Positions 3,001-41,068 of a DNA stretch of 41,068 nt are shown one piece after another. Made by a program: the position numbers and the translations under genes. The notes under the pieces are model-generated. The model had not been told where the DNA came from. It did no database searches and saw nothing but the letters and a program-made list of their open reading frames with translations. Every line of letters starts with the position of its first letter. Positions within the stretch are counted from its first letter, which is position 1. Source of the stretch: Candidatus Woesearchaeota archaeon (GTDB taxonomy: Archaea > Nanobdellota > Nanobdellia > Pacearchaeales > GW2011-AR1); the NCBI GenBank assembly GCA_964615065.1, contig CAZTPM010000001.1:1-41068 (forward strand), in the 5' to 3' direction.

Positions 3001-3740
3001 CGGCAATTGGAAATTGTTATGATAATTATCGTTCATTAGACCATACAGGGTATGGGGATATTTATTTAGAGGATAGATATTCTGATATGTCTGTTGGGAG
3101 AGTGCAGGGAATTACAATTTCGGATGTGTCAAGTTATCTTGGAAGAGATTTATTTTATGATAAAACTGTGAGAACAAAGAATATTCAATTTATGGCAAGT
3201 TCTTTTGATTATATGTTGAAAAATGCAAATAGCTGGACTCAGATTTTTAATAATGTAGGTTATAATGCTCATTGTAGTATTCAACCAACTCCATATATTT
3301 CTGGAAAAGATTTAATTTGTGATATAGATAATAGTTTGGAAACTTGGCCTAATTTATGGAAAAGTAAAGATATGATATCATATATGGACCATGGGAGTCC
3401 TAATTGGGCAGGAATTGATTCTAATGAAATTCCTTATTTAGAAAATTCAATTGTGTATAGTGATGCTTGTTTAACTTGTTCAACATATAATTCTCATTCT
3501 TTTTGCAATAATGTTCTTAGAAAAGGAGGGTTAGGATATTTGGGGGCAGTAAGTACAGGTTGGGCAGGAAATAAGATTTATAAAAATACTATGAATGGAA
3601 TTTATAAAGATAAATTAACTTTAGGAGAGTCATTTACAAAAGCATATGTGTATGATCCTTATGAATACATGACAACTTTATTAGGAGATCCTACACTTGA
3701 TATAAATCCAGATTATAATTTAGATGAGGGATTACCATGA
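3..3740 (+). CDS. Large secreted cysteine-rich surface protein with C-terminal peptidase C25 (gingipain-like) domain; 5' end cut by window edge
   Basis: The frame of the 606..3740 track ORF stays open back to nt 3 in my hand translation, so the TTG at 606 is not the start. N-terminal modules NC.GKECG.DGCGGSCG.C..GYEC and CENQQGCSW each occur twice. The C-terminus shows C25-like motifs: SDMSVGRVQG, MDHGSPNW (His-Gly), SDACLTCS (catalytic Cys candidate) and LLGDPTLDI. Confidence 0.6.
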   Translation, partial: RKEDFSLDSSIRWKCCCEGISECTPNCAGKECGDDGCVGSCGICGTGYECNSHGQCVEQIQSLGICSGVAIPCFKLKDIISCENQQGCSWGSITANAIAPENPLPSSCSGVAKDCKDFSEETFCENQQGCSWKENCVPNCVNKECGGDGCGGSCGTCDEGYECVKGICVEKITPIRGNKKDISKYFNDQVFLISDKNWKDVLQLVPLTTWTQQQGDDSECQRGYGTADSVCVYPTLIFHEEENNNLYIDMDDYYSWQKGSNIITIGLTFLNGGSWSYKKSISKKFNLQPGELITFYYNITTADSVVEKIEITHLPDFLEFVEPVNGIINNINSNFPDWHTFEFILKVKNDTHVEIHKSFDADSIIYFMQQDNTEKVKIVGETPQELDNLLIAEPELGAGINQNQVQRIKPEDYLNYWVSYEDVVYVEDNYELGLMASTYASLINAPLIIQGTELDVPEVFAGRNIICVGSVSPSGATCNEQDNLEQLQKKYVDETNTDKIILVNPNDLNIKVEELFQPEKSANPVYEIYSKISLASPILASAKHEIIISTTATDYEKISDFVKEKVNDLIPKIINNKNGLQRNNYASPTKRIYRKNLSTGKESAIYLVNDYAQRMILSDGKILFKDGSFYVYDIKSQNLQKVRLNVGSIYSDDFSQDKIFYEVSGSNPIQECNLFLYDTLTSEQLFIKSYPNQCQSKITIDGENLAWVANAEKGVCIHNETISCSGASDCSKFCSNDGSSCEIITDCNVGNWCWSDICKMDDEVYVKEGAKTEQKIFTSEYIKIIKISKDNMIFIDSGKGNEKLLLYNISSGQTEIIKDEDLFLAYSDIDGNNVIWVESFYEMGRWINKLYLYNIKTKQKVFISDIWGEYPPQISNGKILWLISNGICENTGLSCLENLDCGSFCTISGKSCGMGDENSWNSCSSEESCVYEQCASTKAYIYDIDSSQTTSIDIPFGAQNILIKDDEIFYTNEEKYDFYLSGFLTIFGAPNAIPLREEMSAIGNCYDNYRSLDHTGYGDIYLEDRYSDMSVGRVQGITISDVSSYLGRDLFYDKTVRTKNIQFMASSFDYMLKNANSWTQIFNNVGYNAHCSIQPTPYISGKDLICDIDNSLETWPNLWKSKDMISYMDHGSPNWAGIDSNEIPYLENSIVYSDACLTCSTYNSHSFCNNVLRKGGLGYLGAVSTGWAGNKIYKNTMNGIYKDKLTLGESFTKAYVYDPYEYMTTLLGDPTLDINPDYNLDEGLP

Positions 3741-4561
3741 TGTCAATAAAAAAATTTATTTTGATTTTATTTTTTGGAATATTCTTTATTCATTTAGTCG
3801 GGGCTGTTACAGACATAAGTATTAGTGTTGATAATATATTTTATGAAGGTGATGAAGTAAAATTTGCTTATAGATTTATTTCTACTCAAGATGAAACAAT
3901 AAATTATTTTGCAAACGTTGAGTGTCCAGGCTCACCTACGGCATCTCTTGAAATGAAAGAAGCTAATTTAGTTGCAAATGAATACTTTCAAGAAGTGTAT
4001 TCTTATGGATTTGTTGGTGAAAATGTTAAATCTGGGAATTGTGTCGCTTCAATTTTTATTTTGGAACCTTATGAGAAAAGTTTTGAAAAATCATTTAAAA
4101 TTGAAACCTTGGAAACTTTCGATTTTTCTTTAATCTTAACCAAAAAGGTTTTCATTCAAAATGAAGATATTGTAATAAATTATACTTCGGAAATTGAAAA
4201 TCCTTCAATAACAGCGACGTTAAATTATCCAGATAATTCAAGTGGGCAAATAAACTTGCCTTACTCGTTTAAAGCAAAGCAAATTGGAACATATGGATTA
4301 GAAGTTGAAGTTTCAAAACAAGGTTATAAAGATATTTCTGTTAAAGAGCAGTTTGGTGTGATTAAAAGTGAAGCAGATATTAATTTTGATGAAACTTCTG
4401 ATTTTTATGATGGTTCTAAAGAAGCAAATGAAAGCAAATTATTTAAGAATAATTCAATATTTTATATTTTTGGGGGGTCTCTGATTCTTTTAATTTTATT
4501 AATTATTATTTTCTTTATTGTTAAGAAAAAGAAGAACCTTAATTCTTCTTCTGAATTGTGA
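3737..4561 (+). CDS. Secreted/membrane-anchored protein (N-terminal signal anchor, C-terminal TM plus KKKK stop-transfer), function unknown
   Basis: ATGA start/stop overlap with the upstream gene. Hydrophobic N-terminus FILILFFGIFFIHLVGA and C-terminal TM IFYIFGGSLILLILLIIIFFIVKKKK. Confidence 0.5.
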   Translation: MMSIKKFILILFFGIFFIHLVGAVTDISISVDNIFYEGDEVKFAYRFISTQDETINYFANVECPGSPTASLEMKEANLVANEYFQEVYSYGFVGENVKSGNCVASIFILEPYEKSFEKSFKIETLETFDFSLILTKKVFIQNEDIVINYTSEIENPSITATLNYPDNSSGQINLPYSFKAKQIGTYGLEVEVSKQGYKDISVKEQFGVIKSEADINFDETSDFYDGSKEANESKLFKNNSIFYIFGGSLILLILLIIIFFIVKKKKNLNSSSEL

Positions 4562-4651
4562 AAGAATTATTAATTTTTTTAGAAGAATTTTTCGCGTTTA
4601 GGTGATAATTTTTTCCTTTCTCTCTAACACGAAAAACATTTTAAACTACGC

Positions 4652-6958
4652 ATGCGTGTTTTGTATATGAAGTTTAATCCAGATTCAAAATTATATTCTT
4701 ATGAAGTGCAGAGGGAGGCAGGTGAAGATGTTCTTTATATTAATTATCTTGGGGCACCATTTGTTCCGAGCTTGGCTGATTCTCCTGAAATTATGGAGAG
4801 AACAGTTGATTCTTTAATTGAAAATCCAAATGTTTCAAGGATTGTTTTTGTCCAGCAAAAAAATTATAATTATGATTTTGAAGAAACTTCTTTTCTTTTA
4901 GAAATTGCACAGCTTTATGTTTATTTAGTGAAGCAGGAAAAAATTTTGTCGCAGGAAAAATTAGTTACAAATGTTGAAGGTGTTTTTTCAAAAAGGTATA
5001 ACCAGCTTTTTTCATTTTTACTTCTGTTAAAACAAGATCCTGTTTCTGCTTATTTTGAATTAAAAAAAATTATAATTGAATCTAAAATAAATTTAGACAA
5101 GATAAGTCCAGATAGAAGGACAGATTTTATGAGTTATGCGCACCTTCTTGAGAAAATTTTTAATTTGTTTGTAAAAACAAAAATTATTCAAAAAGCAAAA
5201 CCTTTTTTGGCAAATTATTCTAAAGGGAATCGGGAAATTTATTATAAATTATTTAGGCCAGATGTCATACCAAATTTTACTTTTACTCGTTTGGTTTCTG
5301 ATTTGCCTGAAGACGCAGAAATTATTGACCAGTATGAAATTTCAAATAGCGACTATGATATTTCGAATGTTACTATTTTGAAAAAAAAGAATGATGCAAA
5401 ATTTATTTATCACCTGATGCCCCCTGAAAATTCTTTGAGCGAAGATCATAACATGCTTTTAAATTTAGCAAGAAGTGTTTTGGTTGAGCACCAGCCCCAA
5501 GCAGAAGAATTTACAGATACAGAAAGGACAAGGCAAGTTTTTTTTAATATTTCAAAGGATTTATTGCAAGACCTTGCCCAGACAAAACAAATTAGTTTAA
5601 GTTATTCTGGTTTGAATAAATTAGCAACTATTTTAGTTAGGCATACAATTGGTTTTGGATTGATTGAAGTTTTGTTACAAGACAAAAAACTTCAGGATAT
5701 TTCTTTGAATGCACCTATTCCTTTGATACCTATTTTTTTAAAGCATCAGGATTTTGATGAATGTTCTTCAAATATCTTACCGAGTCAAGAAGATGTTGAT
5801 TCTTGGGCTGCAAAGTTTAGGATGATTTCTGGTCGGCCTCTTGATGAAGCAAATCCGATTTTGGATACCCAGTTAGAAATTGGAAAAATTAGAGCACGAA
5901 TAGCGATTATTCAGGCACCCTTATCTCCTGATGGTTTGGCCTATTCAATTAGAAGGCACAGAGAAGATCCTTGGACACTTCCTCTTTTTGTTCAGAATAA
6001 AATGTTAAATCCTTTTGCAGCTGGTTTGTTGAGTTTTTTAATTGATGGTTCACGAACCCTTTTAGTTGCAGGAACAAGAAGTTCAGGGAAAACCTCTTTG
6101 CTGGGGAGTTTAATGCAAGAAATTATTCCTAAGTTTAGAGTTATTGTTATTGAAGATTCATTGGAATTACCTGTTGAATCCCTGAGAAAGTTGAAATATG
6201 ATATTTTACGAATGAAAGTTCGTTCTGCTTTGTTGAAAACAACAACAGAAGTTTCTGCAGAGGACGGGATTAGAACAAGTTTGCGTTTAGGTGATAGTTG
6301 TTTAATAATTGGAGAAGTTAGAAGTGTGGAAGCAAAAGCACTTTACGAAGCAATGCGTATTGGTGCTTTAGCAAATGTTGTGGCAGGAACAATTCATGGT
6401 GCGTCGCCATATGGTGTTTTTGATAGGGTTGTAAATGATTTAGGGGTTCCTGCAACTTCTTTCAAAGCAACAGATATAATTGTTATTTGTAATCCTGTAA
6501 AATCAGCAGATGGTTTGCATTCATGGAAAAGGGTTGTTCAAATTTCAGAAGTCAGAAAACATTGGGAAAAAGATCCTTTGCTTGAACAGGGCTTTGTTGA
6601 TTTAATGAAATACAATGTTGAAAAAGACGAGCTTGAACCAACAGAGGACTTGAGGAATGGAGACAGCGAGATAATAAAAAATATTGCTTCAAGTATAAAA
6701 GGTTGGGCAGGAAATTGGGATGCTGTTTATGATAATATTTTACTTCGTGCAAAAATAAAAAAAGAACTTGTTGATATTGCTAAAAAAATTGGGGACAATA
6801 ATCTTTTGGAAGCTGAATTTAACGAGCAATCAAACAATGCTTTTCATCAAATTTCAGATGAAATTGTAAAAGAAGTCGGATTACCCTTAAGTGAGTTTGT
6901 TTTCCCTGAATGGAAAAAGTGGTTGGAAGAAGAGTTGAAGAAGAAGGAGAAATTGTAA
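4652..6958 (+). CDS. Type IV pilus/archaellum-type secretion ATPase (FlaI/ArlI/PilB/VirB11 superfamily) with long N-terminal extension
   Basis: Walker A GTRSSGKTSLLGS, Walker B-like RVIVIEDSLEL, IIGEVRS box and GTIHGAS His box. Alternative start at ATG 4667. Confidence 0.8.
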   Translation: MRVLYMKFNPDSKLYSYEVQREAGEDVLYINYLGAPFVPSLADSPEIMERTVDSLIENPNVSRIVFVQQKNYNYDFEETSFLLEIAQLYVYLVKQEKILSQEKLVTNVEGVFSKRYNQLFSFLLLLKQDPVSAYFELKKIIIESKINLDKISPDRRTDFMSYAHLLEKIFNLFVKTKIIQKAKPFLANYSKGNREIYYKLFRPDVIPNFTFTRLVSDLPEDAEIIDQYEISNSDYDISNVTILKKKNDAKFIYHLMPPENSLSEDHNMLLNLARSVLVEHQPQAEEFTDTERTRQVFFNISKDLLQDLAQTKQISLSYSGLNKLATILVRHTIGFGLIEVLLQDKKLQDISLNAPIPLIPIFLKHQDFDECSSNILPSQEDVDSWAAKFRMISGRPLDEANPILDTQLEIGKIRARIAIIQAPLSPDGLAYSIRRHREDPWTLPLFVQNKMLNPFAAGLLSFLIDGSRTLLVAGTRSSGKTSLLGSLMQEIIPKFRVIVIEDSLELPVESLRKLKYDILRMKVRSALLKTTTEVSAEDGIRTSLRLGDSCLIIGEVRSVEAKALYEAMRIGALANVVAGTIHGASPYGVFDRVVNDLGVPATSFKATDIIVICNPVKSADGLHSWKRVVQISEVRKHWEKDPLLEQGFVDLMKYNVEKDELEPTEDLRNGDSEIIKNIASSIKGWAGNWDAVYDNILLRAKIKKELVDIAKKIGDNNLLEAEFNEQSNNAFHQISDEIVKEVGLPLSEFVFPEWKKWLEEELKKKEKL

Positions 6959-7010: not shown

Positions 7011-9758
7011 ATGGTGAATTTATCAGAAAAAGAAACTAGAAAGAAAATTATAGACCCAATTTTAGAAAGAACTGGATGGAAGAAAGAATATATTAAAGAA
7101 GAAATTAATTCTGTGAAATCTAATTTCGGAACTAAAAAATTTGTTTTTTTTAAGAAAGATAATATAGAGGTCGGAGATAGATTTATTGATTATCTTCTTT
7201 TGGATGAAGATAATTCTCCTTTAGCTATTATTGAAGCAAAGAAAACATCGATAAGTGTTGAAAAGGGAGAAATTCAATCTAGAACCTATCGAGAAGATAT
7301 TGAGAAACAAACAAAAAAAAGAATCCCTATTTTTTTAACAAATGGGAAACAATGGTATTATGTTGACGAGAAAGATAGAAGAAGACAAGTTCCCCTTCCA
7401 TTTGAACAAAAAGATTTGCATAGGAGAGTTCATCTTTTTGAAAGAGAGCGAGATCCAACTAAAGTAAAGATTAAACCAGAGATTGTGGATAGAGATAGAA
7501 GTATAGAAGCAGTAAAGGTTATTTTAGAACATCTCGAAAAAGGAAATAGGTCCGCACTAATTAATATGGCCACAGGAACGGGGAAGACAAGAGTCGCTAT
7601 GGCAATTATAGACGTATTAATGAGATCAAATTCTGTTAGAAATGTTTTATTTATTGTAGATAGAATTTCTTTATCGAATCAAGCTAAAGAAAATGGGTTT
7701 AAAGAATTTTTTCCAGGAGAGCCTGTTTGTGAATTAAATGTTGAAGGATTTTCTGAAAGTGCTAGGCTTTATGTTTCAACCATTCAAACCTTAATGAGTG
7801 ATAAAAAGCCAAGAGGAAAATTTTATGAAAAATTTGGAATAGGCGCTTTTGATTTAATTGTTTATGATGAAGCCCATCGTTCTTATTATGATAAAAATAA
7901 TGATGTCTTAAAATATTTTGATGCTATCAAACTGGGTTTAACTGCAACCCCTTCAAAAAAAGAAGGGAAAGATACTTTTGAATTATTTGGTTGTGAAGAT
8001 AAAGAACCAACATATAAATATGATTATGATTCTGCTGTTGATGATGAAGTTCTAGCTCCTTATTCTGCAGAGGTCATTGAGACTAAGATTTTATCATTAG
8101 GGATAGAAGGAAAGAAATTAAGCAAAGAATTAAGATTTCAATTGGAAAAACAAGAAGAGAACCCCTATGATTTTCAAACTCCTGGAGCAAGATTTGAAAA
8201 ATTGTTTACAGATTCAAGAACAAATGAATTAATTGTTAGAGAGTTTATTGATAGGTGCTATAAAACAGATGATAGGGTTCCATGTAAGACTATCTTCTTT
8301 TGTGCGAGTGTTAAGCATGCTGAATCTTTAAAAAATATCTTTGATAGGCTTTATCCTAATTTAGCTAGAGAAGTAAGAGTTATTACTTCAGACAGAACCA
8401 GATATATGGATGAAGTTAGAAGATTCAAAAGAAACTCTACTCCGAGAATTGCTTTATCTGTCGGAGTTTTAGATACAGGTATTGATATTCCTGAAATTAT
8501 GAATTTGGTTTTTGTTAAACCTGTTTTTTCTTATATAAGATTCTGGCAAATGCTTGGAAGAGGAACTAGAAATTTAGAAACATGTAAGCATAAGGATTGG
8601 TTGCCTCATAAAGATGGAGTAGCTGTTAAAGATAATTTTCTTATTTTAGATTTTAAATTTGGAGAGCATTCAAATGTAGAGTTTCATGATTTAGATAGGA
8701 CAAGAGAAAAGTCCAAATTAATCGACGCTAAAACAAGAATCTTCTTAGAGCAGGTTGATTTGCTTGAAAAAGATTTAAAGGAAAATGAGAAGGAAGTTAT
8801 TGAAAAGGCGATTATAGAAACTGTGAGAAGTATTGACATTGATTCTCCTCTTGTTTTAGAAAAGAAAAATATAATCAAAAAAGTTATTTCTAAAAAATTT
8901 GATTTGAAAGAGCATGTCAAAGAATTGAGGGAAGAAATTGCTCCTTTACTTATTTATTCTAAATCTGAAAATTCAAAAGTTTATGCATTTATTGGAAAAT
9001 GTGTTAAGTTGTTTGACGCTATTAAAGAAGACTATAAGGATAAGATTTGGAAGATTGAAGAGTTTGTTAAAGAAAGAGTTGAGAATGTTTGGGAGAGAAG
9101 TTTGGAAGTGGTTAGAGAGAAAGATGAGCAAATAAAAAAAGTTTTGGGAGATGAATTTTGGCAAGACATAACTTTTGAAGATGTTGATTTCTTAATTAGA
9201 GAAATTGCTTCTTTAATGATTTATTATGAAATCTATGGAAAGAAGATGTTGAGGATTGATGCTCCTGATGTTGTTATTAATGTTGAAAAATTTGAGATGA
9301 AAGTTAAAGAAAATCCTAATTTTGAATATTTCTTAAATAGCAATCCTTTAATTAAAAAAATTAAAGAAAGTAAAGGAGTTACATCTAGAGAATTGCTTGA
9401 AATTGAAAAGAAACTTTCAAGTTTAAATTCTGCTTGGACAATTGAAAATATTCAAAATATTAGAAAAATAGATTTTGTATTATTTTTAAGACAGCTTTTA
9501 CAGGTAATTGATTTGCCTGACCCTCAAGAAATGATTAAGCAAGAATTTGATAAGTTTGTGATTAGCAGGAATGAGCATTATAATTCAGAGCAATTGAAAT
9601 TTCTGAGATTATTAAAACAGGTTTTTGTAAGAGCAAAGCATATTGAATTAAAGGATTTTGCAAAGCATCCTTTGACAGAAGAAAGGCCCTTGGATTTGTT
9701 TGAAAAAAAGCAGTTGATTGAGATTGTTGATAAGTGTAATAAGTTGAGGTGGCGGTGA
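7011..9758 (+). CDS. hsdR: Type I restriction enzyme R subunit (COG4096/EcoEI-like)
   Basis: HsdR_N-like N-terminus EKETRKKIIDPILERTGW. Helicase motifs MATGTGKTRVA (I), VYDEAHRS (II, DEAH), GLTATP (III) and QMLGRGTR (VI). Long helical C-terminal tail. Confidence 0.85.
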   Translation: MVNLSEKETRKKIIDPILERTGWKKEYIKEEINSVKSNFGTKKFVFFKKDNIEVGDRFIDYLLLDEDNSPLAIIEAKKTSISVEKGEIQSRTYREDIEKQTKKRIPIFLTNGKQWYYVDEKDRRRQVPLPFEQKDLHRRVHLFERERDPTKVKIKPEIVDRDRSIEAVKVILEHLEKGNRSALINMATGTGKTRVAMAIIDVLMRSNSVRNVLFIVDRISLSNQAKENGFKEFFPGEPVCELNVEGFSESARLYVSTIQTLMSDKKPRGKFYEKFGIGAFDLIVYDEAHRSYYDKNNDVLKYFDAIKLGLTATPSKKEGKDTFELFGCEDKEPTYKYDYDSAVDDEVLAPYSAEVIETKILSLGIEGKKLSKELRFQLEKQEENPYDFQTPGARFEKLFTDSRTNELIVREFIDRCYKTDDRVPCKTIFFCASVKHAESLKNIFDRLYPNLAREVRVITSDRTRYMDEVRRFKRNSTPRIALSVGVLDTGIDIPEIMNLVFVKPVFSYIRFWQMLGRGTRNLETCKHKDWLPHKDGVAVKDNFLILDFKFGEHSNVEFHDLDRTREKSKLIDAKTRIFLEQVDLLEKDLKENEKEVIEKAIIETVRSIDIDSPLVLEKKNIIKKVISKKFDLKEHVKELREEIAPLLIYSKSENSKVYAFIGKCVKLFDAIKEDYKDKIWKIEEFVKERVENVWERSLEVVREKDEQIKKVLGDEFWQDITFEDVDFLIREIASLMIYYEIYGKKMLRIDAPDVVINVEKFEMKVKENPNFEYFLNSNPLIKKIKESKGVTSRELLEIEKKLSSLNSAWTIENIQNIRKIDFVLFLRQLLQVIDLPDPQEMIKQEFDKFVISRNEHYNSEQLKFLRLLKQVFVRAKHIELKDFAKHPLTEERPLDLFEKKQLIEIVDKCNKLRWR

Positions 9759-11319: not shown

Positions 11320-12015
11320 ATGAGTGAAGAGGAATTATTAAGCCAATTAGAAAGAGTAAAAGAACTTAATTCAGATTTAAAGAAAGAACTTCAAAATAAT
11401 CTTGCTTCTTACGATGTAACTTTAAAAACTAGAAATTTAACAGAAGAAATTTTTGTTAAACTTAGAATTTGTTTAGATAAATTAATTTTTTATTATCTTA
11501 ATAAAAATCATTATCTTGTTGATTTATCTAAAGTTTCTTTTCCAATTTCTAAAACACAAAATGATTTTAATAGTGTTATAACTAATTATGGATTAAAAAA
11601 TATAAATCAAATTCATCCTCAATTTTTTAGTTTATTGTTTGATTCTCAACCATTTTCATCAAAAGAAAAAGAAATCTTAACTATCTTGCATGAAAAAGGG
11701 TCTAAGGAAAAACATCAATTTTTGATTAAAGAAAAAAAAGAAACAAACCATATCCGAACAACTTTTAAAAGCCAAAATGGAGAAATTAGTTGGAGCAAAC
11801 AAGGAGTTTTTTTTGGAGAAGGAGTTTCTATGAATGGGGTTCCAATTAATCCAGCTACACAAGAACCAGCGTTTATACCCCCGACACATAAATTAATTAG
11901 GCATTATGAAATATCTATAAAACTTGTAGATAAAAATATAGAAATAACTTTTTTATGTGATTCCTTAATTAAATTAGTTAAGGAGATAGTTACAAAAACA
12001 TTTAAATTAAAATGA
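11320..12015 (+). CDS. Hypothetical 231-aa protein translationally coupled to hsdS
   Basis: GGAGG at 11308-11312, 7 nt before ATG 11320 (the track start at TTG 11269 is less likely). ATGA overlap with hsdS at 12012. Coiled-coil N-terminus. I recognise no motif. Confidence 0.5.
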   Translation: MSEEELLSQLERVKELNSDLKKELQNNLASYDVTLKTRNLTEEIFVKLRICLDKLIFYYLNKNHYLVDLSKVSFPISKTQNDFNSVITNYGLKNINQIHPQFFSLLFDSQPFSSKEKEILTILHEKGSKEKHQFLIKEKKETNHIRTTFKSQNGEISWSKQGVFFGEGVSMNGVPINPATQEPAFIPPTHKLIRHYEISIKLVDKNIEITFLCDSLIKLVKEIVTKTFKLK

Positions 12016-13148
12016 AAATTAAACAATTACCTCAAGGATGGAAAGAAGTTGAACTTGGAGAACTTTTGAATTACGAGCAACCAACAAAATACATTGTTGA
12101 AGATACAAATTATAATGATAATTATAACACGCCAGTTTTGACAGCAGGCAAATCATTTATTTTAGGGCACACAGATGAAACAGATGGAATTTATAATAAA
12201 TTACCCGTAATAATTTTTGATGATTTTACTACAGATAATAAATTTGTGAATTTTAAATTTAAAGTAAAGTCTAGTGCCATGAAATTATTAACTCCAAAAA
12301 ATAAAGAAATTGATTTAAAATTTATCTTCTTATTAATGCAGACAATTAAAGTTAATTCAATAACCCATAAAAGATATTATCTATCTAAATACAGAAACAT
12401 CAAAATCCCCCTCCCCCCACCCCCCACTCAAAAACAAATAGTTTCAATTTTAGAAAAAGCCGAAAAACTAAAACAAAAAAGAGAACAAGCCGATAAATTA
12501 ATGGAGGATTATTTGAAAAGTGTTTTTAATGAAATGTTTTTGAAAAGAAAAGGAGAGTTTAAAATAAAAAAATTAGTAGATATAACTAAAAAGATAACTG
12601 ATGGAAAGCATGGAGATTGCGAGAATGAAGAAAATTCAGGATATTATTTTATTAGTGCAAAAGATATTTTTAAGGGGGAAGTTCATTATGAAAATTCTAG
12701 ACAAATAAAAAAAGAAGGATATTTAGAAGTCAATAAAAGAGTAAATCTTGAAATAAAAGATGTTTTGATTACAAATAGTGGAACAATTGGAAAAACGGCA
12801 ATAATGAATAATAGAGAGAATGTGGATAAAACAACATTTCAAAAAAGTGTCGCTATAATAAAACCAAATAAAAAATTAATACAATCTATTTATTTAAAAA
12901 ATTTTTTAGATACAATCATAATTAATTTAATGAGCACTTCTTCAGGATCTTCTCAAAAAAATCTTTTATTAAAAGATATAAGAAATATCAAAATCCCCCT
13001 CCCGCCTCTTGCTCTTCAAAAAAAATTTGCTTCTATTGTTGAGCGGGTTGAAAAATTAAAAGAAAAACAAAAACAATCTAAAGAAGAAATAAGTCAGATG
13101 TTTGATGTGCTGATGCAGAAGGCGTTTAAGGGGGCGTTGATGAAATGA
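12012..13148 (+). CDS. hsdS: Type I R-M specificity subunit
   Basis: Two target-recognition halves, each followed by a conserved helix: IKIPLPPPPTQKQIVSILEKAEKLKQKREQ and IKIPLPPLALQKKFASIVERVEKLKEKQKQ. Confidence 0.85.
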   Translation: MKIKQLPQGWKEVELGELLNYEQPTKYIVEDTNYNDNYNTPVLTAGKSFILGHTDETDGIYNKLPVIIFDDFTTDNKFVNFKFKVKSSAMKLLTPKNKEIDLKFIFLLMQTIKVNSITHKRYYLSKYRNIKIPLPPPPTQKQIVSILEKAEKLKQKREQADKLMEDYLKSVFNEMFLKRKGEFKIKKLVDITKKITDGKHGDCENEENSGYYFISAKDIFKGEVHYENSRQIKKEGYLEVNKRVNLEIKDVLITNSGTIGKTAIMNNRENVDKTTFQKSVAIIKPNKKLIQSIYLKNFLDTIIINLMSTSSGSSQKNLLLKDIRNIKIPLPPLALQKKFASIVERVEKLKEKQKQSKEEISQMFDVLMQKAFKGALMK

Positions 13149-14011: not shown

Positions 14012-15493
14012 ATGCTACACACAGAACTCAAATCACAAATAAACAAACTATGGGATAAGTTTTGGTCTGGTGGAATCTCTAATCCTCTTCAGGCAATTGA
14101 ACAAATATCTTTCTTGATTTTCATGAAAAGATTTGAAGATATGGATGTTCGAAGAGAACAAGAGGCAAGTTTAACAGAAGAAGAATTTATATCCATGTTT
14201 AAAAAACATGAAAATTGTCGTTGGAGTGTTTGGAGTGAATATAGTGCCGATAAGATTTTAGACCATGCAAGAGATGTTGTATTCCCTTTTATGAGAAATT
14301 TAGGGGATGGAGATTCTTTTTCAAAATATATGAATAGTGCTAATTTTGAAATTCCCACAGCATCATTACTTATAGAGGGTGTTAAGATAATTAACGATAT
14401 GCACATTAAAGAACAAAACCAAGATGCTCAGGGAGATATGTATGAATATTTATTAAGTGAATTGCAAACAGCTGGAAAAAATGGGCAATTCAGAACACCA
14501 AGACATATAATTAAAATGATGGTTGAATTAACTAAACCACAATACGGGGATTTAATTTTAGATCCTGCCTGCGGAACAGCAGGTTTTTTAATAAATGCTT
14601 ATGAATATATCTTAAAACAAAATACTTCTAAAGACCTAATAAAAAAAGATGAAGAAGGAAATGAATATAATTTCAAGGCAGATAAATTAAACTCTAAGCA
14701 GAAACAAATTCTTGATGAAGAAAGCTTATATGGTTTTGATATTGACCAAACCATGACAAGAATAGCTTTGATGAATTTAATGATGCATGGAATAAGCAAA
14801 CCAAATTTAGAACAATTAAATACTCTTTCAAAAAGATATAATCAAGATAATACTTATGATTTAATCTTAGCAAATCCCCCTTTCAAAGGTTCTATTGATG
14901 AATCAGAAAGCAGTGATAATCTTACAATAAAAAGCAAAAAAACAGAATTATTATTTTTAGAATTAATGTATAATTCCTTAACAAATGGGGGAAGATGTGC
15001 AGTTATTGTTCCAGATGGGGTTTTGTTTGGTAATTCAAAAGCCCATAAATTAATTAGGAAATTACTTTTAGAAGATTGTAGATTAGATGCTATAATAAAA
15101 ATGCCTTCTGGAGTTTTCAAACCTTATGCTGGAGTTTCTACAGCTGTTTTATTTTTCACAAAAGGAGAGCCAACAAAAAAAGTTTGGTTTTATGATATGC
15201 AAAATGATGGTTTTAGTTTGGATGATAAAAGAACAAAAATAGAAGGAAGTAATCTCCCAGACATAATTGAAAGATTCAAAAAAAGAAAGGAAGAATCTAA
15301 TGAAGATAGAAAAAAGAAACACTTCTTTGTGCCAATTGAAGAAATAAAAGAAAATGATTATGACCTAAGCATTTCTAAATACAAGGAAATAGAATATGAA
15401 GAAAAAGTATATGAAAAACCAGAGATTATAAAAAAGAAAACTCTAAAAATTGAGGAAGAGATTGTTAAGGGATTGAAAGAGTTGAAGTTGTAA
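14012..15493 (+). CDS. hsdM: Type I R-M N6-adenine DNA methyltransferase subunit
   Basis: HsdM_N-like LWDKFWSGGISNPLQAIEQISFLIFMKR. SAM motif I DPACGTAGFL. Motif IV LANPPFKGS. Confidence 0.9.
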   Translation: MLHTELKSQINKLWDKFWSGGISNPLQAIEQISFLIFMKRFEDMDVRREQEASLTEEEFISMFKKHENCRWSVWSEYSADKILDHARDVVFPFMRNLGDGDSFSKYMNSANFEIPTASLLIEGVKIINDMHIKEQNQDAQGDMYEYLLSELQTAGKNGQFRTPRHIIKMMVELTKPQYGDLILDPACGTAGFLINAYEYILKQNTSKDLIKKDEEGNEYNFKADKLNSKQKQILDEESLYGFDIDQTMTRIALMNLMMHGISKPNLEQLNTLSKRYNQDNTYDLILANPPFKGSIDESESSDNLTIKSKKTELLFLELMYNSLTNGGRCAVIVPDGVLFGNSKAHKLIRKLLLEDCRLDAIIKMPSGVFKPYAGVSTAVLFFTKGEPTKKVWFYDMQNDGFSLDDKRTKIEGSNLPDIIERFKKRKEESNEDRKKKHFFVPIEEIKENDYDLSISKYKEIEYEEKVYEKPEIIKKKTLKIEEEIVKGLKELKL

Positions 15494-25239: not shown

Positions 25240-26289
25240 ATGTATGAGGTGATTTTTTTATTGGTCTTGGGAATGTTGTGGGTTTTATTTGCAACTTTGC
25301 AAGATTTGAAAACTAATGAAGTTGCTAATTGGGTTAATTTTTCTTTGATAATTTTTGCTCTTGGTTTTAGGTTTTTTTATGATTTCTTTGAAAATTCGAC
25401 TCAAAATGTTTTTGGAACTCTTCTTGTTTTTCTAATAACTTTTTTTATATTAATGGGAATGATTTTGTTTTTTGAAGCTTCTTTTAAAAAATTCAAAAAC
25501 GAAGTTTGGTTTTTTATTGGTGTTTTCTGTATAGGACTTATTTTGTTATTTTTTGAATTTAAATTCCAAATTCTTTTTAATTTATTTTCTCAAAATAGTT
25601 TTTCTTTTTTATATTTTGGTGTTTTAGGTTTGGTAATTTTCTTTTTAATTGGGAATTTCTTGTATTATAGCAGATTATTTGCAGGAGGAGATGCAAAACT
25701 CATGACTGCTCTTGGTTCTATTTTGTTTTTCTCTGAAAGTTTATCTTCCAATATAAATAATTTGGTTTTGTTCTTGGTTTTGTTCTTTTTTGTTGGGACA
25801 CTTTATGGTTTAATTGCAAGTTTTTATTTTTGTTTAAAGAATTTAAAGAATTTTAAAAAAGAATTTTGGAAAAGATTACAAAAAATAAAAAAAACTATTT
25901 ATGGATTTATGATTTTTGGTTTGGTTTTAATGGCAATAGGTTTTACTGAAAATTTATTTTTTGTTTTTGGGATTCTGATTTTTCTTTTTCCTGGTCTCTA
26001 TTTATTTGCAAAATCTATTGATGAGGTTTGTATGATAAAAAAAATAAAAACAGAAAAATTAACACAAGGGGATTGGCTTTATAAAAATTTGAAAATTGGA
26101 AATAAGATGATTGAAGCAAATTGGAATGGCTTGGCAAAAAAACAAATTGATTTTATTAAAAAGAAAAAGGATTTTGTTTTAATCAGAAAGGGAATCCCTT
26201 ATGTGCCAACTTTTTTAATTAGTTTTATTTTCTTGGTTGCCGTTAGGTTTTTTGGATTCTTAAAAAATATTTTTCTTTTTTTAAATTAA
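25240..26289 (+). CDS. Archaeal prepilin/preflagellin peptidase (A24 family, FlaK/PibD-like)
   Basis: First Asp motif TLQDLKTNEV and second Asp motif FAGGDAKLM. Polytopic membrane protein. C-terminal domain ending in GIPYVPTFL. Confidence 0.85.
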   Translation: MYEVIFLLVLGMLWVLFATLQDLKTNEVANWVNFSLIIFALGFRFFYDFFENSTQNVFGTLLVFLITFFILMGMILFFEASFKKFKNEVWFFIGVFCIGLILLFFEFKFQILFNLFSQNSFSFLYFGVLGLVIFFLIGNFLYYSRLFAGGDAKLMTALGSILFFSESLSSNINNLVLFLVLFFFVGTLYGLIASFYFCLKNLKNFKKEFWKRLQKIKKTIYGFMIFGLVLMAIGFTENLFFVFGILIFLFPGLYLFAKSIDEVCMIKKIKTEKLTQGDWLYKNLKIGNKMIEANWNGLAKKQIDFIKKKKDFVLIRKGIPYVPTFLISFIFLVAVRFFGFLKNIFLFLN

Positions 26290-37316: not shown

Positions 37317-38111
37317 ATGGGTAAAACAATAGGGGTGTTAAGTTTAAAAGGTGGTGTCGGTAAAACTTCGTCTGTCGTGGCACTTGGTTCTGCTTTGGCA
37401 AATCTTGGAAAAAAAGTTTTATTAGTTGATGCTAATTTTTCAGCACCAAATTTGGGTTTGCATTTAAACGTTGTTGATCCTGAAGTAACTTTTCATTCTG
37501 TTTTAGAAAATAAAGCCCATCCAAAAGAAGCTGTTCAAAGGGTTCTGAATTTTGATATTATGCCTGCTTGTATTTTTGGGAATCCTAATTTGAATTATTT
37601 AAAACTTAGAGATAAAATTAAATCTTTGAAAAGAAGTTACGATATTATTTTGCTTGATTCTTCGCCTGCTTTGAATGAAGAAACTTTAGCTGCAATGAAT
37701 GCTTCAGACGAGATTCTTGTTGTGACAACTCCTGATCATTCTACATTGAGCACAACTTTGAAATCTGTTAAATTAGCAAAACAAAAAGGAATTCCAATAA
37801 TTGGTTTGATTTTAAATAAAGTTTATGAAAAAGGATTTGAATTATCAATTGATGATGTTGAGGACACAATTGAAGTTCCTGTTATGGCTGTAATCCCTTA
37901 TGATATAAATATTTTGAAAGCATTAGCAGAGTTTGTTCCTTCTCCTGTTTACAAACCATCTTCAAAATCAAGTGAAGAATACAACAAGTTGGCGGCAACT
38001 TTGGTTGGAGAAAAATACAAGTCAAAGGGTTTTAGAAATTTATTTAGGAAAATTAAACCAAAAAGGCATGAGATTAATAGAATTGTTTATTATGAGCAAG
38101 TTTTTAAATGA
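37317..38111 (+). CDS. MinD/ParA-family P-loop ATPase
   Basis: Deviant Walker A LSLKGGVGKTSS. LLVDAN. Walker B IILLDSSPA. Confidence 0.8.
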   Translation: MGKTIGVLSLKGGVGKTSSVVALGSALANLGKKVLLVDANFSAPNLGLHLNVVDPEVTFHSVLENKAHPKEAVQRVLNFDIMPACIFGNPNLNYLKLRDKIKSLKRSYDIILLDSSPALNEETLAAMNASDEILVVTTPDHSTLSTTLKSVKLAKQKGIPIIGLILNKVYEKGFELSIDDVEDTIEVPVMAVIPYDINILKALAEFVPSPVYKPSSKSSEEYNKLAATLVGEKYKSKGFRNLFRKIKPKRHEINRIVYYEQVFK

Positions 38112-38115
38112 TTTT

Positions 38116-38346
38116 TTATTTTTTCTGAGTTTTATACTTATCATAAATAGTTTTCAATAAATATCCTAAAAGAAAAAAAGAAAAAAATAATGAAAAATTT
38201 GATTTTGTTTTAATATAGTTGTAGAAAAAATAGATTATTAAACTTACCCAGAATAAATAACCTAAATATTTTGCTATTATTAATAATTTTGAAAAGAGTT
38301 CTTGATTTTTTTCTGAATTATAAGTTAAAGGCACTTTTATAGTCAT
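38116..38346 (-). CDS. Small membrane protein, unknown
   Basis: Two hydrophobic helices: YLGYLFWVSLIIYFFY and FSLFFSFFLLGYLL. Confidence 0.3.
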   Translation of the reverse strand: MTIKVPLTYNSEKNQELFSKLLIIAKYLGYLFWVSLIIYFFYNYIKTKSNFSLFFSFFLLGYLLKTIYDKYKTQKK

Positions 38347-38424
38347 GAATTATTTAAGTGATTTCTTATTTAATAATGTTTTCAATCAAAAATTTTAAAA
38401 ATAGGTAAGATGTAGTTTTTTTAG

Positions 38425-38497
38425 AGCCCCATAGTTCAGTGGTCAAGAATTCAAGGTTTTGGACCTTGAGACCCAGGTTCGAATCCTGGTGGGGCTA
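38425..38497 (+). tRNA. tRNA-Gln (anticodon TTG)
   Basis: Folded by hand. 7-bp acceptor AGCCCCA/TGGGGCT with an A1-U72 pair. D arm GTTC/GAAT. Anticodon stem CAAGG/CCTTG with loop TT-TTG-GA. T arm CCAGG-TTCGAAT-CCTGG. Discriminator A. CCA is not encoded. Confidence 0.9.
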
Positions 38498-38731
38498 TCC
38501 GACTTTCAGTCTCAGTTTGAAGGAACATTTTAGATACTTTTTGAGCTAAAGTATTTTTATAGATTTTTTGCGTAAAAAAGACATGGTTAAAGAAATGAGA
38601 ATACTACAATATCTAAATAAATATTATACAGCTTTGGAAAAACAAATATATTAATTTTATAGTGACAACATATTAGAAAGATTTATAAATGCATAAAATC
38701 GTATTTAATCGTGTTAAATAGGAGAAATCCA

Positions 38732-38878
38732 ATGAAACAAAAATTGAGCATAACAATTGACAGAAAAACAATTAAACTTATAGAGGAATCTATAAAAGAC
38801 GGCTTGTTCAGGAACAGATCTCATGTTGTTGAGTTTAGTTTAAATAAAACATTAAAGGAGAAAAAACAAAATGCCTAA
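38732..38878 (+). CDS. Small (48 aa) ribbon-helix-helix (CopG/Arc/MetJ-like) regulator; not in ORF track
   Basis: GGAG 7 nt upstream of the ATG. MKQKLSITIDRKTIKLIEESIKDGLFRNRSHVVEFSLNKTLKEKKQNA. Overlaps the next gene by 8 nt. Confidence 0.5.
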   Translation: MKQKLSITIDRKTIKLIEESIKDGLFRNRSHVVEFSLNKTLKEKKQNA

Positions 38879-40235
38879 AGAAAAATTACAAGATAAAGTA
38901 AGAGGACTTTATGAGAAGGTTGGAAATGAATTTTATTTAAATAGAGATGATTTTGAATCAAACGGAGAGAAATTTAATTCTGCTTTGTTAATGGGAACTT
39001 TAACAGAACTTAACAAAGGGAACATGCTTTTATTCGGAGAATATGGTGGAGGTAAAACAACTTCTGCAGAATATTTGAACTCTGTGTTTAATGGACTGCC
39101 TTTAGATTTGGTTAAGAGAGTTGCTATTAGAGGTAATCCTCAACTAACAGAAGAAAAAATGGTTGGTAGACCACATTATGGTAAGATGCACCAAGGGGAA
39201 GAAGATGTTGTATGGCAGCATTTTGTTTTGGTTGGACCCAAAATATTCGACGAGTTTAATAGAATCCCAGAATCAAATCAGGCTGTTGTTTTAAATGGTG
39301 TTGATAGAGGAGAGTGGAATTATTTGAATGACTTTGTCTCAACAGGACCTCAATCATTTTTCGCAACTTGTAATTATGCTGATAAAGGAAATAATGGATT
39401 AATTCCTCCTATTTTAGATAGATTTGACGTTGGTGTTGAATCAAAATTCCCAGGTGTTGCTAATGCATTGCACATTGCTCAGGATTATCACAATGATAAA
39501 GATAAAATTTTAAGTGATCCAAAATTAACAAGAAAAGCTTTAGAAGTTTTAAGTTCTGGAAAATCTTATGAGGAAACACAAAAAGAATTAGAACAAATAG
39601 TTCAATCACATGAGGGTACTTTAAGAGAAAAAGGATTTCCTGTTTTATCAACAGAAGATAAAGAAAAAATTGAACAAGAGATTAGGGAGGTCCCTTTTGA
39701 TAGAGATGCTGAGCAGTATTTTGCTTTTTTAGTTGCTGAAATGAACACAAGCCAAAAGTATGGGCAAAAAAGAAGTATTGACCCTGCTTCAAGCGAGCAT
39801 GGATTGTACTTGCAGGCAGCTTTTGTCGGAAGTGGTAGTAGAAGGGAAGAAAAATCTATTGTTAGATATGCAAAATCTTTGGCATGGTTGCAGGACCAAG
39901 GAGAAGTTAATCTTGATCATGTTACACAAGTTGCTCCTTATATTTTGTGGCACAGAATTAAATGGACTCCTGAAACAGAACAAGCATTTAGAGAAAATGA
40001 TAGAGAAGACCCATTGGATTTATACATAACTAAAACTACTCTTGGAGACGGAACAAATGAATTGCCGGGAGTTAAAAAAAGATTTGTAGAAAGTCAGGAA
40101 AATTATCAAAGAGTTATTGATTTAGTTGGACATGGAAAAATTGATAAAGCATTGCAAGAAGCAAAAGAATATGCAGCTGACGGAAAAGGACATCCAATAT
40201 TCCAAGATACAATAAAGGATTTGGAAGGGAGATAA
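38871..40235 (+). CDS. MoxR-like AAA+ ATPase (COG0714-type core) with about 200-aa helical C-terminal extension
   Basis: Walker A LLFGEYGGGKTTSA. Walker B IFDEFNRIPESNQAVVLNGVDRGEW. ATCNY. Sensor region LIPPILDRFDV. Confidence 0.65.
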   Translation: MPKEKLQDKVRGLYEKVGNEFYLNRDDFESNGEKFNSALLMGTLTELNKGNMLLFGEYGGGKTTSAEYLNSVFNGLPLDLVKRVAIRGNPQLTEEKMVGRPHYGKMHQGEEDVVWQHFVLVGPKIFDEFNRIPESNQAVVLNGVDRGEWNYLNDFVSTGPQSFFATCNYADKGNNGLIPPILDRFDVGVESKFPGVANALHIAQDYHNDKDKILSDPKLTRKALEVLSSGKSYEETQKELEQIVQSHEGTLREKGFPVLSTEDKEKIEQEIREVPFDRDAEQYFAFLVAEMNTSQKYGQKRSIDPASSEHGLYLQAAFVGSGSRREEKSIVRYAKSLAWLQDQGEVNLDHVTQVAPYILWHRIKWTPETEQAFRENDREDPLDLYITKTTLGDGTNELPGVKKRFVESQENYQRVIDLVGHGKIDKALQEAKEYAADGKGHPIFQDTIKDLEGR

Positions 40236-40236
40236 A

Positions 40237-41043
40237 ATGCCAAATCCACGTTTTCTTCAAACAGCAGAACGTTGGAAGAACAAAGAGATTCCGACTGAAA
40301 GAGAGAAAAAACAAAGACCAATTAAACAAAAAACTCCTTTTGCAACAGGGAATGTTAATTATAGTTTCTTAGAAGGAAATTCCGGAAAACAAATTTTAGA
40401 AGAATATAATCAAAGAGTAAAAGCAGATTACAAAGATAGTTCTGCTTTGAAAGTTTTATCTTTTGCAGACAATGTTGTTCAGGGAAGCAATCCATTTGCA
40501 TTTGTTTTGCTTAACAAAATTTTAACTCAGCAAAAAATGAGAATAGCAACCCCTGCTGATTTAGAAAGAGCATTAGAAAAAGAAGCAATTAATTTAAGAG
40601 ATACTTATGGGGATTCTGGATTGGTTTTGAGAGGTGGGGGAGAACCAAACCAATACTTAGCAAGAGATTTAATTAATCAAGTTAAACAAAAAGGAAGTTT
40701 GCAATATCCTTTAATGATTCCATTAGAAGGATTGGATTTAAAATATGACTCAAATTCACCGCATAATTTATCTTTTCAATTAACTGATTTTTCAGAATTG
40801 ATTTATGCTTCACAATTAAATAAGATAAATCAGAGTAAGAAGTTTAATCGTGCAGACGAACAAGGACTCCCAATTTTTGAGGATAATGGATCAAGAACCT
40901 TGTATTCAAATGAAGATGGAGGACTTTGTAGGCTGTGTCGTGGCGGGGTTCTTGGCCTGGTCGCTGGGGACTGGTATCTCGCTAGTTCGGGCGACTATGG
41001 CCGGGTAATTGTTTGTGCCGAAGGCACGCGCGCAAAAAATTAA
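40237..41043 (+). CDS. Hypothetical 268-aa protein; partner of the AAA+ ATPase; C-terminal 40 aa encoded by an anomalously GC-rich segment
   Basis: Starts 1 nt after the upstream stop. I see no VWA (DxSxS) motif or any other motif. The tail is LCRLCRGGVLGLVAGDWYLASSGDYGRVIVCAEGTRAKN. Confidence 0.45.
   Translation: MPNPRFLQTAERWKNKEIPTEREKKQRPIKQKTPFATGNVNYSFLEGNSGKQILEEYNQRVKADYKDSSALKVLSFADNVVQGSNPFAFVLLNKILTQQKMRIATPADLERALEKEAINLRDTYGDSGLVLRGGGEPNQYLARDLINQVKQKGSLQYPLMIPLEGLDLKYDSNSPHNLSFQLTDFSELIYASQLNKINQSKKFNRADEQGLPIFEDNGSRTLYSNEDGGLCRLCRGGVLGLVAGDWYLASSGDYGRVIVCAEGTRAKN
40925..41035. other. GC spike (about 60-65% by hand count) with hairpins, inside the 3' end of CDS 40237..41043
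   Basis: GGCC-TG-GTCGC...GCGAC-TAT-GGCC (40954-41002). GTGCC-GAA-GGCAC (41015-41027). Codons GGC, CTG, GTC, CGC, GCC and ACG are atypical for this window. Confidence 0.35.
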
Positions 41044-41068
41044 TAAAATGGTAAACAAAAGATTTTTA

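Follow-up and report, generated by a model that had tools for sequence, protein, structure and literature searches.

Diversity-generating retroelements (DGRs) are the dominant class of reverse transcriptase (RT) in DPANN archaea, and the default guess for the role of their orphan targets has been host attachment. DGRs with orphan targets are known in DPANN and Nanoarchaeota (Paul et al. 2015, PMC4372165; Handa et al. 2016, PMC5006420, for AvpA), and DGR-diversified MoxR-vWA 'ternary conflict systems' have been described in cyanobacteria, gammaproteobacteria and Thiohalocapsa (Kaur et al. 2020, PMC7159879; Dore et al. 2024, PMC10907252), among them cases where the target has no vWA domain and is immediately preceded by a MoxR gene. 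The latter two studies tie MoxR-vWA systems to multicellularity and mention only a few archaeal cases. In this work we examine a gene cassette at the end of a 41,068-nt stretch of DNA (the window, always meaning the stretch in full) from a Candidatus Woesearchaeota archaeon (assembly GCA_964615065.1, contig CAZTPM010000001.1), in which three closely spaced genes encode a small ribbon-helix-helix (RHH)-like protein, a MoxR-like AAA+ ATPase and a 268-aa protein that a first-pass annotation, made from the sequence alone, had described as an unknown partner of the ATPase. We consider it virtually certain that this partner is a DGR variable (target) protein, here named VP1, and that the cassette is a DGR target cassette.

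Key to this assignment are related contigs (labelled L001-L032), on which an RT matching RVT_1 adjoins orthologues of the cassette. Self-comparison of these loci revealed that two or three paralogous VP genes carry, at their 3' ends, matches to a single 72-85-nt repeat next to the RT, and that all or nearly all of the mismatches between this template repeat (TR) and the variable repeats (VRs) fall at adenines of the RT-proximal copy, any one pair having no more than one or two exceptions. An RT-adjacent repeat with such adenine-biased mismatches is the signature of a DGR, and adenine-biased pairs were found in cis at 10 loci (L001, L003, L006, L009-L011, L016, L019, L020 and L024); L005 has a TR/VR repeat too, but 3 of its 17 mismatches lie off adenines. 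The RT carries the DGR-type motifs LGNMTSQ and YVDD and matches phrog_1423 (E = 8e-115). For the window copy, the relevant templates are those of L009, L010 and L011, whose cassettes are 93% identical in nucleotides to window positions 38643-41066: the VR of VP1 differs from their TR at 16 of 72 nt, and every one of the 16 mismatches is at a TR adenine (chance P = 5e-12). Read in frame, the TR gives LYRNRDLDLNARNRNLANSNDNG, with 7 AAY codons and 14 mutable codons from which no stop codon can be reached, corresponding to ~1.2e12 protein variants. Diversification is also visible in the databases, in that two proteins from the VP1 cluster, P0212 and P0216, are identical to window VP1 over residues 1-232 and 256-268 and differ from it at 11 and 7 VR positions, respectively, all of them adenine-reachable. 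In 75 VP homologues, adenine-containing codons have a column entropy of 2.28 bits, against 0.35 bits for the other VR codons and 1.16 bits for the globular body.

The borders of the repeats point in the same direction. Among the related loci all VRs end in GGYCGGGTA and all TRs in GGYCGAATA, and a GC-rich hairpin with a 3-nt loop lies 4-6 nt past every VR but after none of the TRs, its stems varying in sequence yet staying complementary (GTGCC/GGCAC, GCCCC/GGGGC, GCGCC/GGCGC and CGCGC/GCGCG). This layout of hairpin and paired initiation of mutagenic homing elements (IMH in the VR, IMH* in the TR) is that of classical DGRs such as those of Bordetella phage BPP-1 (Mtd) and Treponema TvpA, with which the cassette also shares adenine-specific transfer from TR to VR and a C-terminal VR. 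Unlike those systems, it has a VR about half as long and no phage context, a profile-guided scan of IMG/VR having returned no relative of the ATPase and PHROGs generic matches only. Accessory genes (Avd or HRDC) are not a universal part of DGRs. No Avd-like gene was noticed in the cassette, although no Avd-specific search was made, and in L009-L011 no gene is called between VP3 and the TR and RT. Coordinates of the features discussed here are collected in Table 1.

Table 1. Positions in the window of the cassette genes, their control elements, the variable repeat and the flanking tRNA gene.
Feature	Position	Strand	Basis or remark
tRNA-Gln (UUG)	38425..38497	+	flanking gene outside the conserved cassette; ARAGORN
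Conserved upstream region, left edge of shared cassette	38643..38731	+	blastn boundary with L005 and L009-L012 at 38643/38644
Conserved element TATAGTGACAACA	38658-38670	+	alignment of 13 upstream regions
BRE (TFB recognition element)/TATA box AGAAAGA-TTTATAAA, i.e. AGAAAGATTTATAAA	38675-38689	+	alignment of 13 upstream regions
Shine-Dalgarno AGGAG	38720-38724	+	upstream of RHH-like gene
RHH-like gene	38732..38878	+	48 aa from ATG; alternative GTG at 38711 gives 55 aa
MoxR-like AAA+ ATPase gene	38871..40235	+	454 aa
VP1 gene ('unknown partner')	40237..41043	+	268 aa
Variable repeat (VR) of VP1	40932..41003	+	codons 233-255, 14 mutable codons; comparison with TR of L009/L010/L011
IMH-like VR end GGCCGGGTAA	40999..41008	+	cognate TRs: GGCCGAATAG (IMH*-like)
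GC-rich hairpin GTGCC-GAA-GGCAC	41015..41027	+	just 3' of VR; element of the DGR target-recognition hairpin/cruciform type
VP2 gene start	41048..41068	+	first 7 codons, MVNKRFL; last 21 nt of window, then contig end

VP1 is built from a conserved N-terminal helix (MPNPRFLQTAERWKN), a disordered linker (approximately residues 20-38), a globular domain and the C-terminal variable region. The helix, with the consensus MPNPRFLQTAERWxN, is common to all VP paralogues and is followed by a linker of low model confidence. As the first-pass annotation had observed, the translation contains no DxSxS motif of the metal ion-dependent adhesion site (MIDAS) type. AlphaFold2 produced a confident model of VP1 (mean pLDDT 84.7), yet Foldseek found no significant fold match for it in PDB or BFVD (best E 0.3-0.7); NKG2D, TvpA (2y3c, E 1.6, a non-significant hint only), CD23 and EgtB appear among the matches only at E 0.7-9 with TM <0.2. 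Nor did VP1 match any PDB chain in phmmer and profile searches, or any Pfam, NCBIfam or PADLOC family, those for FGE-sulfatase and lectin domains in Pfam included. In lacking a Pfam domain it resembles the 'orphan' targets of previously described DPANN and Nanoarchaeota DGRs (PMC4372165, PMC5006420); these DGRs also share with the cassette the host group, an RT with an adjacent TR, a single TR serving several VRs and a short, AAY-rich VR of ~24 residues. The likeness to AvpA extends to the IMH, which encodes the last invariant beta-strand (GRV.. in the window cassette, RFxGV in AvpA). However, the VP family has no sequence match to AvpA or to any PDB chain, Foldseek does not return AvpA, the VR of the cassette is situated at the very C-terminus and its targets are embedded in an RHH/MoxR/VWA operon.

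Two VP alleles deserve separate mention. At L008 (1402-2172; P0213/P0004) the VR of VP1 has barely diverged from the TR, and the loss of 1 nt at an adenine site shifts the frame and leaves 256 aa; this is either a null allele made by the DGR or an assembly chimera. P0215, from the VP cluster of the window, joins a VP1 scaffold to a VP3-type tail (GRVNF-ARSASPKN) after the VR, and this suggests that paralogues have recombined at the VR they have in common, or that the assembly switched from one to another there.

The cassette is larger than the window reveals. Having annotated 28 fetched loci with the seed proteins, we found a constant gene order of RHH, ATPase, VP1, (VP2), a VWA protein of 520-590 aa, and VP3, in which the ATPase gene is always immediately 5' of a VP gene. 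The complete unit comprises some eight parts: the RHH gene, the MoxR-like ATPase, VP1, VP2, a zincin(HExxH)-VWA(MIDAS) protein, VP3, the TR and the RT. TR and RT lie downstream on the same strand in L005, L009-L011 and L024, and upstream and divergent in L001, L003, L006, L016, L019, L020 and L026. The VPs of these loci are separate proteins of 267-305 aa that carry the VRs, and the VWA protein carries none. A minimal version is encoded at L024 (247-4083), consisting of the RHH gene, the ATPase, two diverged VPs, the TR and the RT. At L005 (9265-9711) the RT open reading frame (ORF) 3' of the TR stops after ~110 RT residues (a 148-aa ORF) near the contig end, and this RT may have decayed.

In the window itself no integrase, RT or template repeat was found, a sensitive blastn of the VP1 3' end against the whole window giving chance matches only and Pfam scans of 20 further ORFs giving neither RT nor integrase, in agreement with the earlier observation that no integrase is visible before its end. 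A contig from JGI (3300028161, L030) is 100% identical to window positions 40015-41068 and extends through a 289-aa VP2 to the beginning of the VWA gene; the MVNKRFL with which the window breaks off is the start of VP2 and bears the same N-terminal motif as other VP2s. Because L030 continues in this way, the apparent lack of a VWA partner, to which the first-pass annotation had drawn attention, is explained as an artefact of the contig break, and a canonical VWA partner of the ATPase does exist two genes downstream, cut off by the contig end. The exact TR is found with VP3 and RT on L031 and L032, and in the window lineage the TR and RT are situated downstream of the operon and past the contig end. 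The supposed three-gene unit is the 5' half of the operon, the portion that the contig break leaves in view. Contigs L007, L014, L018 and L022 also end inside or beside VP genes, which fits assembly breaks at repeated VP/VR sequences, and loci in metagenome-assembled genomes come to resemble truncated 'three-gene cassettes' since assemblies break at these repeats.

The VWA protein was identified in the same operon as the ATPase at 16 loci and is absent from L024, so that this putative effector is dispensable in at least one lineage. Its MIDAS residues (D389, S391, S393, T464 and D489) are invariant, its HExxH residues (H74, E75 and H78) are nearly so, and 42 of the 45 members of the family match VWA_2. 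The zincin matches of its N-terminal part are weak, with SprT-like and M48 models matching 8/45 and 7/45 members at E 0.014 or worse. An initial identification of the downstream gene of 550-590 aa as a second ATPase was discarded; it had rested on a DNA repeat of 44 nt with 70% identity, and the encoded protein proved to combine HExxH and VWA.

The ATPase retains an intact AAA+ core with Walker A, Walker B, sensor 1, arginine finger and sensor 2; residues G56-T64, D127, E128, N168, R184 and R325 are invariant in 57 homologues, as are those corresponding to the motifs GEYGGGKTT, FDEFNR and ILDRF that are present in the 454-aa translation. In Pfam the window protein matches AAA_5 (1.9e-6) and AAA_lid_2 (1.1e-7); the two families are matched by 57/57 and 56/57 homologues, AAA_lid_2 by 57/57. 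The family of MoxR proper, AAA_3 (PF07726), is matched by just 5/57 homologues and at E 0.074 or worse. Because AAA_5 rather than AAA_3 is matched, the protein is better termed 'MoxR-like' than MoxR proper, and the MoxR-type assignment of the first-pass annotation holds for the motifs, the AAA_lid_2 domain and the fold but not for membership of AAA_3. The AlphaFold2 model (pLDDT 90) has as its top PDB match 2r44 (the putative ATPase CHU_0153; E 2.7e-11, TMt 0.72), which we take to be a MoxR-family protein, followed by MCM and BchI, and by fold and lid the ATPase belongs to the MoxR/Mg-chelatase (helix-2-insert) clade. Its C-terminal extension is all-helical. Part of this tail (residues 411-446, window 40100-40235) gives a weak match to Effector-associated domain 11 (PF19964), a member of a group of adaptor domains found in bacterial conflict systems; only 5/57 homologues match it, at E 0.03 or worse, and we set this assignment aside as a lead only. 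The pairing with a VWA protein recalls the classical MoxR-VWA pairs (RavA-ViaA, CbbQ-CbbO, NorQ-NorD and CoxD-CoxE; PMC7159879), in which a AAA+ protein of the MoxR/Mg-chelatase clade is likewise encoded with a MIDAS-bearing partner, and the MIDAS residues DxSxS...T...D are all conserved in the cassette. Those pairs differ in serving one fixed metalloenzyme client each, whereas the candidate clients here are hypermutating binding proteins, and the cassette ATPase differs from them in matching AAA_5 rather than AAA_3.

The head of the operon is also conserved. The RHH-like gene stands directly 5' of the ATPase in most of the related loci that reach upstream of it, in agreement with the first-pass description of a tightly packed unit with a small RHH-like gene at its head, and both AGAAAG(A/G)TTTATAAA and the element at 38658-38670 are kept across 13 aligned upstream regions. 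The sequence pattern of the 48-aa protein fits RHH, but profile support is weak: its match to Pfam RHH_1 (E 0.035, 14.5 bits) falls under the cut-off of 20.5, NCBIfam returns weak matches to ParD, NikR, CdrS and MazE, and a PHROG transcriptional repressor is matched at E 0.0024. We regard it as a small, RHH-like DNA-binding protein that is encoded first in the operon and is its putative autoregulator, with the conserved element as a candidate operator. The ORF coordinates of the earlier description, the 8-nt overlap between the RHH-like and ATPase ORFs, the 1-nt gap between ATPase and VP1 and the tRNA were all recovered in the ORF list and by ARAGORN, the tRNA-Gln (ttg/UUG) being the sole tRNA of the window and lying 235 nt ahead of the ATG of the RHH-like gene. 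The ORFs are real genes: a database search returned more than 270 homologues for the ATPase (52-98% identity) and 91 for VP1, and a profile search 927 cluster representatives for the VP1 family. Homologues of the cassette proteins carry the names Pacearchaeota, Woesearchaeota or Nanoarchaeota.

Comparison of flanking regions bears on how the cassette came to its present site. By blastn, homology with the closest relatives begins at 38643, 146 nt past the tRNA-Gln, and the cassette is 87-98% identical in nucleotides while the flanks differ in every lineage, L009-L012 having a 242-aa gene and, in addition, a Y1 transposase, L005 a winged helix-turn-helix gene and tRNA-Asp, and L006 tRNA-Glu, an integrase and the RT. 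Integrases are found near the cassette in L001, L003 and L006. Because the flanks differ among loci, the cassette has been relocated or transferred and is a mobile rather than a housekeeping unit. A housekeeping MoxR operon at a fixed chromosomal locus, shared by all relatives, had been named at the outset as the scenario to contend with, and the high sequence conservation that the ATPase shows in Pacearchaeota and Woesearchaeota (typically 70-85%, reaching 98%) would accord with it; the varying genomic context, the association with RT, integrases and transposase, and the occurrence of the cassette in only 16 GTDB species representatives in a pattern-limited scan leave it with scarcely any probability.

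Mobility was the part of the first-pass proposal of a tRNA-integrated island that the variable flanks, integrases and transposase bear out; the tRNA as integration site was not. A tRNA stands beside the cassette in three contexts (the window, L005 and L006), each time a different one, most loci have none, and in L006 no repeat of the tRNA-Glu 3' end was detected downstream (longest exact match 13 nt), so that a tRNA-specific island is not demonstrated. The related possibility of a tRNA-integrated defence or toxin-antitoxin-like island, formed of RHH gene, ATPase and orphan effector and having no link to a retroelement, draws on the RHH-like gene in first position, on these three tRNAs, on the integrases and on a cassette GC content of 35% (window 38001-41000) against 25-30% in the neighbouring 10 kb. 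We judge it very unlikely, for the partner is demonstrably a DGR target and the TR/VR evidence largely refutes the idea; PADLOC matches and an att repeat are also lacking, and homology with relatives starts only 146 nt after the tRNA. Two neighbouring arrangements may be recorded here. The Y1 (IS200/IS605-type) transposase of L012 is encoded at 407-847, ~1.3 kb upstream of the cassette. In L006 (4185-4448) a partial duplicate of tRNA-Glu (4270-4316) with its upstream stretch lies ~100 nt before the intact tRNA-Glu (4374-4448), which is directly followed by a tyrosine integrase; the duplicate may be a scar of integration or excision.

As a whole, the locus is in our view probably best explained as the promoter-proximal portion of a mobile operon, linked to a DGR, in Pacearchaeota and Woesearchaeota that works on a sensor-transducer-effector model. 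DGR targeting of VP1-3 is shown, as is the linkage of their genes in one operon with the RHH-like gene, the MoxR-like ATPase and the MIDAS-VWA/HExxH protein; the 72-nt VR that ends the VP1 gene is rewritten by adenine-specific mutagenic retrohoming from the TR next to the DGR RT. In the proposed model, the two or three paralogous VPs would act as soluble cytoplasmic ligand binders with up to ~1e12 variants each. Their common N-terminal helix (RFLQTAERW) would be the part that docks onto the MoxR hexamer/VWA-MIDAS adaptor, such that ligand capture could be coupled, by ATP-driven remodelling, to the VWA protein's HExxH peptidase-like domain, which would be activated or delivered. The RHH protein would autoregulate the operon by way of the conserved element that precedes the BRE/TATA box. 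This specific mechanism is tentative and could well be wrong; the interaction of VP, ATPase and VWA protein, the peptidase activity and the binding of ligands are all steps that we infer.

Among the described systems close to the cassette are the VMAP ternary conflict systems, which share with it a vWA/MIDAS protein and, putatively, a peptidase-type domain in one operon as well as predicted cytoplasmic targets, and Thiohalocapsa DGR 8 / clade 5A (PMC10907252) further resembles it in that its targets lack a vWA domain and a small DNA-binding gene takes the position of VMAP. The cassette differs from VMAP systems in its host, an ultra-small archaeon that is not known to be multicellular, and in its VPs, which are small standalone proteins in 2-3 paralogues rather than vWA-FGS/CLec fusions and whose fold is not recognisably FGS. 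Its peptidase-like domain, a putative zincin, precedes the VWA domain as an N-terminal fusion, and VMAP, Trypco, TIR, caspase and trypsin domains were not detected. Several further points weigh against the sensor-transducer-effector reading. In a PADLOC search for known defence systems none of the cassette proteins was matched, apart from generic RT models for the RT, and no Pfam or PADLOC match on the VPs or the VWA protein suggested a VMAP domain, the libraries used holding no VMAP model. The fold of VP1 is not recognisably that of a C-type lectin or a formylglycine-generating enzyme (FGE). The window itself contains neither TR nor RT, and diversification of this copy is deduced from orthologous and identical contigs. 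The cassettes of L023, L017 and L025 have no RT or TR within their available flanks and are possibly decaying or trans-served copies; at L025 (8873-12871) the VP-like genes are split into pieces of 150-160 aa. L024 possesses the ATPase, two VPs, the TR and the RT but no VWA gene. Finally, the DPANN and Candidate Phyla Radiation (CPR) DGRs examined by Dore et al. (PMC10907252) were not linked to conflict domains.

The predicted location of the proteins bears on the usual literature reading of DPANN and CPR DGR targets (PMC6349945, PMC8632793), under which the VPs would be hypervariable adhesins, or proteins for interaction with the host, of an episymbiotic DPANN cell, matured by MoxR-VWA or loaded by it onto a surface or injection structure. 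MoxR-VWA pairs are indeed known as maturation and assembly chaperones, including in an archaeal virus tail system (PMC7159879), and the window holds pilus- or secretion-type genes (a T2SSE ATPase and an A24 prepilin peptidase), though these are not adjacent. However, no signal peptide or transmembrane segment was detected in VP1-3, the ATPase or the VWA protein, where hydrophobic segments and signal-like N-termini are absent (maximum 19-residue Kyte-Doolittle score, KD19, at or below 1.02), and in related loci no gene for secretion or a surface structure is conserved beside the cassette. All of the cassette proteins look cytoplasmic, and we consider a role in host attachment unlikely, if still worth weighing.

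Another alternative is that of MoxR-VWA(zincin) as a dedicated foldase or protease that folds or culls VP variants, the output of the system residing in the VPs alone. Random rewriting would give many misfolded VP products, which provides a rationale for such quality control; the invariable position of the ATPase gene directly 5' of a VP gene, the conservation of HExxH on the VWA protein, and the resemblance of the shared VP N-terminal tag and disordered linker to an unfoldase handle would all be in keeping with it. Set against these are the lack of a VWA/zincin gene in L024 and the tolerance of the characterised DGR target folds, which to our knowledge accept variation without chaperones. We regard quality control as improbable and retain the sensor-transducer-effector model as the better account of the operon.

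The remainder of the window is a segment of archaeal chromosome with low GC (25-33%) and genes for eIF2-alpha, a DHH-CID RecJ/GAN-type protein, RadA, type I restriction-modification and a ParA/MinD-like ATPase. The restriction-modification system is complete (hsdR 7011-9758, hsdS 12012-13148 and hsdM 14012-15493), with several small ORFs of no assigned function in between. Positions 606-6958 encode a 1044-aa protein with a C25 peptidase domain and a 768-aa T2SSE-type secretion/pilus ATPase, and positions 25240-26289 the A24 prepilin peptidase. Surface-structure genes of this kind are typical of DPANN, and here they are unlinked to the cassette.

In the searchable literature, which did not extend to Paul et al. 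2017, we found no description of a DPANN DGR-MoxR-VWA architecture, and a prior description is possible. The cassette joins one large target family that lacks annotation to a MoxR ATPase, a MIDAS-VWA/zincin protein and a small regulator within an operon of fixed make-up, and it extends to minimal archaea a DGR-MoxR-vWA association so far known from multicellular bacteria. It also yields a hypothesis that can be tested biochemically, with a sensor, an ATP-driven transducer and a peptidase as its components. The broadest form of that hypothesis, that DPANN carry a mobile, cytoplasmic, antibody-like recognition system in which two or three hypermutated sensors of new fold signal through a MoxR/VWA-MIDAS adaptor to a zincin peptidase, is speculative and on present evidence doubtful. 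If it were true, the operon would be what the DGR-MoxR-vWA conflict systems of bacteria correspond to in archaea and the proposed link of such systems to multicellularity would be broken, and it would argue that many DPANN DGR targets are intracellular sensors rather than surface adhesins.

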